Sequence record: PQ783785
Source of the DNA: Escherichia phage PDP46
Direction: 5' to 3' (one strand)
Length of the DNA: 56,522 nucleotides
The notes beneath the pieces are model-generated. The model was not told where the DNA came from and did not search any database. It saw only the letters and a program-made list of their open reading frames with translations. Both the position numbers and the translations under genes were made by a program. Below are positions 54,151 to 54,437 of this stretch, piece after piece. Each line of letters starts with the position of its first letter. The first letter of the stretch is position 1.

Positions 54151-54437
54151 ATGAGCACTAAACTTCAACTTGCCGTTAATGGTAAATACTTTGACCAGAT
54201 TAAAAATGGTGAAAAAACCGAAGAATACCGTTTGTTCAATGACTACTGGAAAAACGTTTAATTAACCGAACCTATGACAGGTTAATCATCACTCGTGGTT
54301 ATCCGCGCAAAGATGACAACGAACGGATTCTGAATATGCACTATCGAGGTTATGAAATAAAAACAATCAATCATGAATTTTTCGGAAATAATCCAGTGAA
54401 AGTATTCGCTATAAAACTTGAGGTACAACCATCATGA
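54151..54437 (+). pseudogene. ASCH-domain-like gene split by a -1 frameshift at an A-run
   Basis: Frame 1 gives MSTKLQLAVNGKYFDQIKNGEKTEEYRLFNDYWKNV-stop; -1 frame continues LLEKRLINRTYDRLIITRGYPRKDDNERILNMHYRGYEIKTINHEFF...; junction at GGAAAAAC ~54249-54255. Confidence 0.4.

Follow-up and report, generated by a model that had tools for sequence, protein, structure and literature searches.

Solved proteins of the ASCH family include those of Enterococcus faecalis (3IUW), Zymomonas mobilis (ZmASCH, 5GUQ/5GUS) and Thermus (TTHA0113, 2DP9), together with human EOLA1 and TRIP4/ASC-1. The sequence GxKxxExR has been described as the ASCH motif and located in the α1–β2 region (PMC6803910). Among phages and prophages, the closest relatives of the protein considered here belong to PHROG 625, which includes L0064 of 933W and proteins of the ea-region in Stx phages and P22-like phages; no study of this phage ASCH subfamily came up in a literature search. 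For genes that are read in two frames, the described systems most similar to the present locus are the tail assembly chaperone pair G/GT and Escherichia coli dnaX, the latter with the slippery heptamer A_AAA_AAG, a Shine-Dalgarno-like element upstream and a strong hairpin downstream. At the locus analyzed in this work, an ASCH-like gene changes frame at a run of A residues.

The window, that is, the whole stretch of DNA that was analyzed (56,522 nt, Escherichia phage PDP46, PQ783785), is essentially the whole genome of a 9NA-like (Nonanavirus/Sashavirus) E. coli siphophage of 56.5 kb. Its identity to Escherichia phages PJ16, AVIO78A and Bas82 and to Sashavirus 536P12/BDX09P1 is about 96% and is distributed in mosaic blocks. 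The ASCH site lies in a rightward early or accessory array, where a ParB-like gene is followed by small ORFs and then by an HD phosphohydrolase gene. Beyond this array, a minus-strand gene of 267 aa (55390–56193) contains tandem 21-nt repeats at about 55520–55650 that encode (EAPVARV)x5–6; their copy number varies, with four EPPVARV units in contig L004 and a 21-nt indel relative to contig L012. The features of the ASCH locus and its borders are the following.

53807–54148, plus strand: small gene upstream, whose product has a CPEC zinc-ribbon-like motif at its C-terminus, start uncertain; conserved left border of a variable slot.
54151–54172, plus strand: mosaic junction formed by the opening 22 nt of the ASCH ORF (MSTKLQL), common to the DUF7446 gene.
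54151–54261, plus strand: shortened 5′ portion of the ASCH gene, with 36 codons and TAA, covering β1–α1–β2 and the start of α2 (elements taken from the AF2 prediction for an intact allele).
54208–54231, plus strand: ASCH codons G20–R27 (GEKTEEYR), which fit the signature GxKxxExR in the 61-sequence alignment.
54212–54217, plus strand: first A-run; A6 is the in-frame length, with A7 in L004 and, as inferred from proteins, in P0134 and P0138.
54243–54437, plus strand: 3′ portion of the ASCH gene, with 64 codons and TGA in the −1 frame.
54250–54254, plus strand: second A-run, A5 here and A6 in intact alleles according to alignments and run counts; the 1-nt deletion breaks the gene.
54261–54286, plus strand: weak AU-rich hairpin of 7 bp with a 12-nt loop, beginning 5 nt past the A-run; not judged a frameshift stimulator.
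54434–55003, plus strand: downstream HD_4 phosphohydrolase gene, intact, 189 aa (PF13328, E = 2.9e-15), with its own GAGG at 54420–54423.

The ATG at 54151–54153 opens a plus-strand ORF of 36 codons, MSTKLQLAVNGKYFDQIKNGEKTEEYRLFNDYWKNV, which ends at the TAA at 54259–54261. The −1 frame contains a TGA at 54240–54242 and is then open from 54243 to the TGA at 54435–54437, encoding LLEKRLINRTYDRLIITRGYPRKDDNERILNMHYRGYEIKTINHEFFGNNPVKVFAIKLEVQPS; its stop codon overlaps the ATG of the HD gene at 54434 (ATGA). The initial annotation had described both frames in these terms, and its account of the 36-residue product and of the stop overlapping the HD start is borne out. Both frames are open across 54243–54258, around TGG AAAAA C, in which the five A residues occupy 54250–54254. 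The direction of the shift at this run is −1, equal to one lost base, and the addition of a single A merges the two frames into a protein of 95 aa. Within the 3′ part, the sole in-frame ATG, GTG or TTG is at 54336 and would yield a peptide of 33 aa, the exact product of which was absent from the records in an exact look-up.

Comparison with homologs argues that the two frames are parts of one gene. In tblastn searches, residues 5–92 of the joined protein align as one segment, in a single frame and with 60–70% identity, to 331 phage records, many of which carry an ASCH-domain annotation; the joined protein has a full-length match to PHROG 625 (E = 1.8e-39), and its close homologs are named 'ASCH domain-containing protein' by their sources. 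An alignment of 61 family sequences has 23 invariant columns, which lie on both sides of the junction. The signature residues G20, K22, E25 and R27 are invariant in these homologs, those within the 3′ part include R36, L45, I47, T48, G50, Y51, P52 and H75, and W33 and R36 directly flank the junction, with the variable positions 34–35 between them (KK, SK, GR, ER and others). Since the joined part is one domain, aligned in a single frame with invariant residues on either side of the junction, a pair of unrelated small genes can be ruled out. An ASCH-like gene broken by a −1 frame change at the A-run, encoding a domain of about 95 aa across both frames, had been proposed from the sequence, with comparison to intact homologs as the suggested check; gene layout and single-frame homologs agree with this proposal, and the joined 95-aa protein matches hundreds of single-frame phage ASCH-domain proteins.

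The assignment to the ASCH fold was approached by fold prediction and structure search, a sequence search of the PDB having returned nothing meaningful. The Pfam ASCH profile PF04266 reaches 17.3 bits on the 36-aa fragment, against a gathering cutoff of 21.2, and covers residues 8–28 (profile positions 2–22); the joined protein has no Pfam match at E ≤ 0.01, and none was returned by NCBIfam. For the intact allele P0001, AF2 gave a model with a pLDDT of 89.5 and a pTM of 0.79, and in a Foldseek comparison with the PDB the top nine matches of this model are all ASCH structures (3iuw, 5guq, 5gus, 5y6b), with probabilities of 0.95–0.98 and TM scores of 0.47–0.62, but with E-values of only 0.06–0.16. 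The GxKxxExR of the joined protein is placed at the end of helix H11–18 and in strand E24–28 of the model. On this evidence the joined product is a predicted ASCH-fold protein. The 36-aa product retains GxKxxExR and lacks strands E44–49, E60–64, E68–73 and E83–89, four of the six, along with 15 of the 23 invariant residues. In contig L022 (2268–3851), an intact ASCH gene lies between a gene for a dATP/dGTP pyrophosphohydrolase-like protein (PF04447) and the HD_4 gene, neighbors that perhaps place the ASCH protein in a cluster for nucleotide or modified-base metabolism.

Intact counterparts of the window allele exist elsewhere. A protein search recovered P0001, an intact protein of 95 aa and 99% identity, whose contig, L021, has A6 at both runs, a single substitution in 287 nt and the same slot ahead of the HD gene. 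The intact allele P0124 (A6, WKK), the protein of which is identical to the 95-aa reconstruction from the window, is found on 9 public contigs, and further near-identical intact variants are present among the cluster members. The run lengths given for P0124, P0134 and P0138 and the stop of P0140 are read back from proteins only. These decisive relatives came from the protein database search and exact look-ups; in the GenBank phage collection nothing exceeded about 70% amino acid identity to the joined protein, the match in E. coli genomes was restricted to the 5′ junction, IMG/VR contributed one near-identical contig (L004), and scans of metagenomes and GTDB returned distant homologs only.

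The A5 allele itself recurs. It is found in at least five other contigs (L004, L030, L031, L032 and L033) from at least three other sources, and the exact 36-aa product occurs on 4–6 contigs, including ENA ERZ15232946 (SPAdes, 58 kb) and ERZ27265311 (MEGAHIT, 57 kb) and Logan ERR5883800 and ERR5883803. In the ASCH segment the A5 contigs and the window have 0 mismatches in 287 nt, while in the flanking genes they differ at 5–7 of 242 and 20–21 of 566 positions (2–3.7%), and neighboring genes also differ; to judge from these sequences, the A5 contigs are different genomes from the window. This recurrence bears directly on whether the break is an artifact, as had been considered from the sequence, in a phage that truly has A6 and lost one A during sequencing or assembly. 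Homopolymers are the classic spot for indel errors, and the intact allele is separated from the window copy by that one base only. Nevertheless, an error would have to be repeated identically in at least five contigs from different samples and different assemblers, with SPAdes, MEGAHIT, Logan and IMG/VR contigs among them.

The rest of the window is clean by the same standard. Of 76 coding sequences of PJ16 with a match in the window, 68 are covered to at least 90% in one frame and none is split, the remaining eight being mosaic replacements; a six-frame scan of the window with the ORFs of its relatives found the ASCH gene to be the sole mid-gene frame change. A filtered audit of the window counted about 20 isolated 1-nt indels relative to relatives, nearly all of them intergenic or at ORF ends. 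Random errors would fall mostly inside genes, and such a placement is what would be expected of real differences filtered by selection. Given the recurrence of A5 and the absence of any other split gene, a sequencing error is the least probable of the explanations considered here, to be reckoned with only as a very long shot. As a separate observation, the motif AAAAGGTAAAAAACCATG is shared by two ribosome-binding regions of the window (25609–25630 and 50508–50530), and at both sites, just upstream of start codons, the window has A6 and its relatives have A5.

A second way of keeping the gene functional would be a programmed or otherwise useful −1 shift on G_AAA_AAC (54249–54255), aided by the TAA and by the hairpin at 54261–54286, that yields a 95-aa protein besides the 36-aa one. 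The slip would give WKN or WKK followed by RLIN, which suits the variable positions 34–35; the hairpin starts 5 nt downstream of the A-run, the A5 allele occurs in several genomes, and AAAAAC is also the core of the slippery site of this phage's tail chaperone. However, in the upstream frame, TGG AAA AAC, the heptamer G_AAA_AAC departs from X_XXY_YYZ, with G instead of A at X, and the P-site tRNA would need to re-pair on GAA. The hairpin is weak (−5.5 kcal/mol, z = −1.51, with 17 of 200 shuffled sequences folding as well; z = −1.54 for a stretch of 75 nt), and intact alleles have it just the same, as plain coding sequence for conserved residues. No Rfam match was found at the ASCH site and no Shine-Dalgarno-like sequence was seen upstream of it. 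Nor is the shift conserved, given that the 331 phage homologs are single-frame and the otherwise identical A6 allele is present on 9 contigs; codons 34–35 vary across the family and the A-run is not conserved, and the A7 alleles of the first run would require a +1 shift, so that one mechanism cannot rescue them. Programmed frameshifting, one of the options of the initial annotation, is on these grounds quite improbable, although G_AAA_AAC and the close stop could allow low-level −1 slippage to the full-length protein. Transcriptional slippage was set aside, runs of 5–6 A being too short for appreciable slippage of RNA polymerase.

The genome does contain a site of the canonical kind. The tail assembly chaperone pair occupies 25627–26345, with A_AAA_AAC at 26039–26045, just before the TGA (26047–26049) of a G-like ORF of 140 aa, and the ORF in the −1 frame continues to 26345; this site is, by its arrangement, the predicted real programmed frameshift of the genome. 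The octamer GGAAAAAC lies at 26025–26032 as a second, out-of-phase copy; in the window as a whole it is found 5 times, where chance predicts 3.1. The resemblance of the ASCH site to the chaperone site that had been pointed out is therefore partial: the AAAAAC core is shared, but the chaperone has an in-phase A_AAA_AAC and the ASCH gene G_AAA_AAC.

With a probability of roughly three in four, we conclude that the window carries a loss-of-function allele of a 95-codon ASCH accessory gene that arose by slippage from A6 to A5. Replication slippage would have deleted one A at 54250–54254, and the ribosome would then shift onto the TAA two codons later and release a stub of 36 residues. The remaining two thirds of the gene, on the 3′ side, with 54336 as the first possible start codon and none that appears usable, would stay untranslated save for traces of −1 slippage, whereas the HD gene, with its own Shine-Dalgarno sequence (GAGG, 54420–54423), would remain expressed. 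Because the cassette is AT-rich and has many A/T runs, homopolymer frameshifts would be the commonest way in which it breaks. From gene anatomy, the intact counterpart, the recurrence of A5 and the other broken alleles, all of which were seen directly, we infer the slippage mechanism, the absence of function and the dispensability of the gene. The mutation is probably recent, because five of the six A5 copies have decayed no further. The suggestion of a recent pseudogene in the initial annotation is thus the one that the intact A6 counterpart, the recurrence of A5 and the other broken alleles favor.

These other broken alleles are of several kinds. Contig L004 from IMG/VR has A7 in the first run and A5 in the second, and its reading frame runs into a TGA. 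Two further proteins, P0134 and P0138 (MVNTLTRLKMVKK-TEEYRL…), fit only A7 in the first run and A6 in the second and differ at position 31 (D or V). P0140 stops after Y32, a truncation to 32 aa that is likewise read back from the protein; P0129 is fused to the next gene by read-through; and P0007, on contig L023, results from a deletion after which 48 ParB codons run straight into the ASCH 3′ part, with …NYW joined to KKRL. Since intact copies and several variants broken in different ways circulate side by side, the gene is evidently dispensable. In L023 (3001–3333, Logan SRR28001094), the deletion is about 2 kb, and ParB …GVFTDNYW is joined to ASCH KKRLINRTYD… in a chimeric ORF of 110 aa, the joint lying at a shared ACTACTGGAAA, exactly at the A-run. 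Contig L004 has a second decayed accessory gene: in a comparison of L004 2376–2730 with L021 2356–2730, homologous to 53464–53892 of the window, 20 nt were lost between CATCATG direct repeats, and the neighbor gene is thereby split into ORFs of 84 aa and 63 aa.

The slot that holds the gene is itself variable. The interval from the zinc-ribbon-like gene to the HD gene is filled by a DUF7446 gene in Bas82 and by two other genes in AVIO78A, and is empty in PJ16. The last 51 nt of the upstream gene, together with 22 nt at the start of the ASCH ORF (54100–54172; L013 2501–2573, L001 about 1700–1775), are 98–99% identical to the start region of an unrelated DUF7446 gene in Bas82 and three E. coli prophages, and this homology ends after CAACTTG. 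As the window protein begins with the MSTKLQL of DUF7446 and the usual N-terminus of the family in the 61-sequence alignment is MANLQLAV, the ASCH cassette looks to have replaced a DUF7446 gene at a short microhomology, in what resembles a microhomology recombination joint. The cassette (54151–54437) has a GC content of 35%, against 43.7% for the window, and contains 5 runs of at least 5 bases in 287 nt, against 1.2 expected; it is a slippage hotspot. Among seven genomes it has 0–1 mismatches in 287 nt, where about 9 would be expected at the rate of the flanks, the adjacent genes differing by 2–3.7%. Since it is uniform despite divergent flanks, the cassette looks like a recent arrival that moves between these phages.

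The same uniformity enters into a further reading, in which the loss is not neutral: the two A-runs would act as a crude on/off switch, or loss would be favored on some hosts, for instance as an escape from a host system that senses the ASCH protein. All four combinations of run lengths exist across samples (6/6, 6/5, 7/6 and 7/5), A7 is found on three haplotypes (two of them inferred from proteins), and roughly one third of the recorded cassette contigs carry a disrupted copy, in a cassette far more uniform than its flanks. A5 is paired with three downstream HD haplotypes, each of which is also found with A6, an arrangement that implies either repeated mutation or spread of the allele by recombination at the border of the cassette. 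It also weighs somewhat against simple decay, as a neutral pseudogene would not obviously spread, and so does the intactness of the rest of the gene in five of six A5 copies; the A5 copies are all identical and thus carry no record of selection on the untranslated 3′ part. On the other hand, the tracts, at 5–7 bases, are short for a contingency locus, and no reversion is possible for the 32-aa truncation or the deletion chimera, in keeping with plain decay. Selected switching or loss is accordingly unlikely, if less so than recoding or error, and that a switch or repeated selected loss keeps the polymorphism in populations of 9NA-like coliphages is slightly more doubtful still. If this were true, it would mean that a phage ASCH protein has a host-dependent cost or benefit.

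Under the preferred reading of a broken accessory gene, the finding is an ordinary, real frameshift pseudogene allele that is useful for annotation. A single disrupted ASCH-domain gene (frameshift pseudogene) is the appropriate entry for the two small ORFs, not two hypothetical proteins and not a case of recoding. Being a genuine variant in the population, the frameshift should be left in place and not corrected by "polishing". The several broken copies beside intact ones mark the gene as dispensable or conditionally useful, and they provide natural knock-outs for tests of function.

Set against the known systems, the ASCH site shares with the tail chaperone pair G/GT an A-rich AAAAAC site, a continuation in the −1 frame and a nearby stop in the 0 frame. 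In G/GT, however, both products are needed and the site is canonical and in phase, whereas the ASCH site came from a one-base deletion that is absent from intact alleles. The likeness to dnaX consists in a non-structural gene with a slippery run of lysine codons; dnaX has a canonical heptamer, two strong stimulators and a conserved shift, none of which the ASCH site has. The solved ASCH proteins share with the phage protein a predicted PUA-like β-barrel, in which α1 lies between β1 and β2 and GxKxxExR occupies the same place, but their identity to it is only 16–22% and the Foldseek E-values are 0.06–0.2. The closest resemblance is to the PHROG 625 proteins, which are of about 91–96 aa, have 60–73% full-length identity to the joined protein and the same invariant residues, including GxKxxExR, and are likewise products of accessory early-region genes. 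They differ from the window allele in being encoded by intact single ORFs, whereas the window copy is split by a 1-nt deletion and begins with a chimeric N-terminus (MSTKLQL) taken from the DUF7446 gene.
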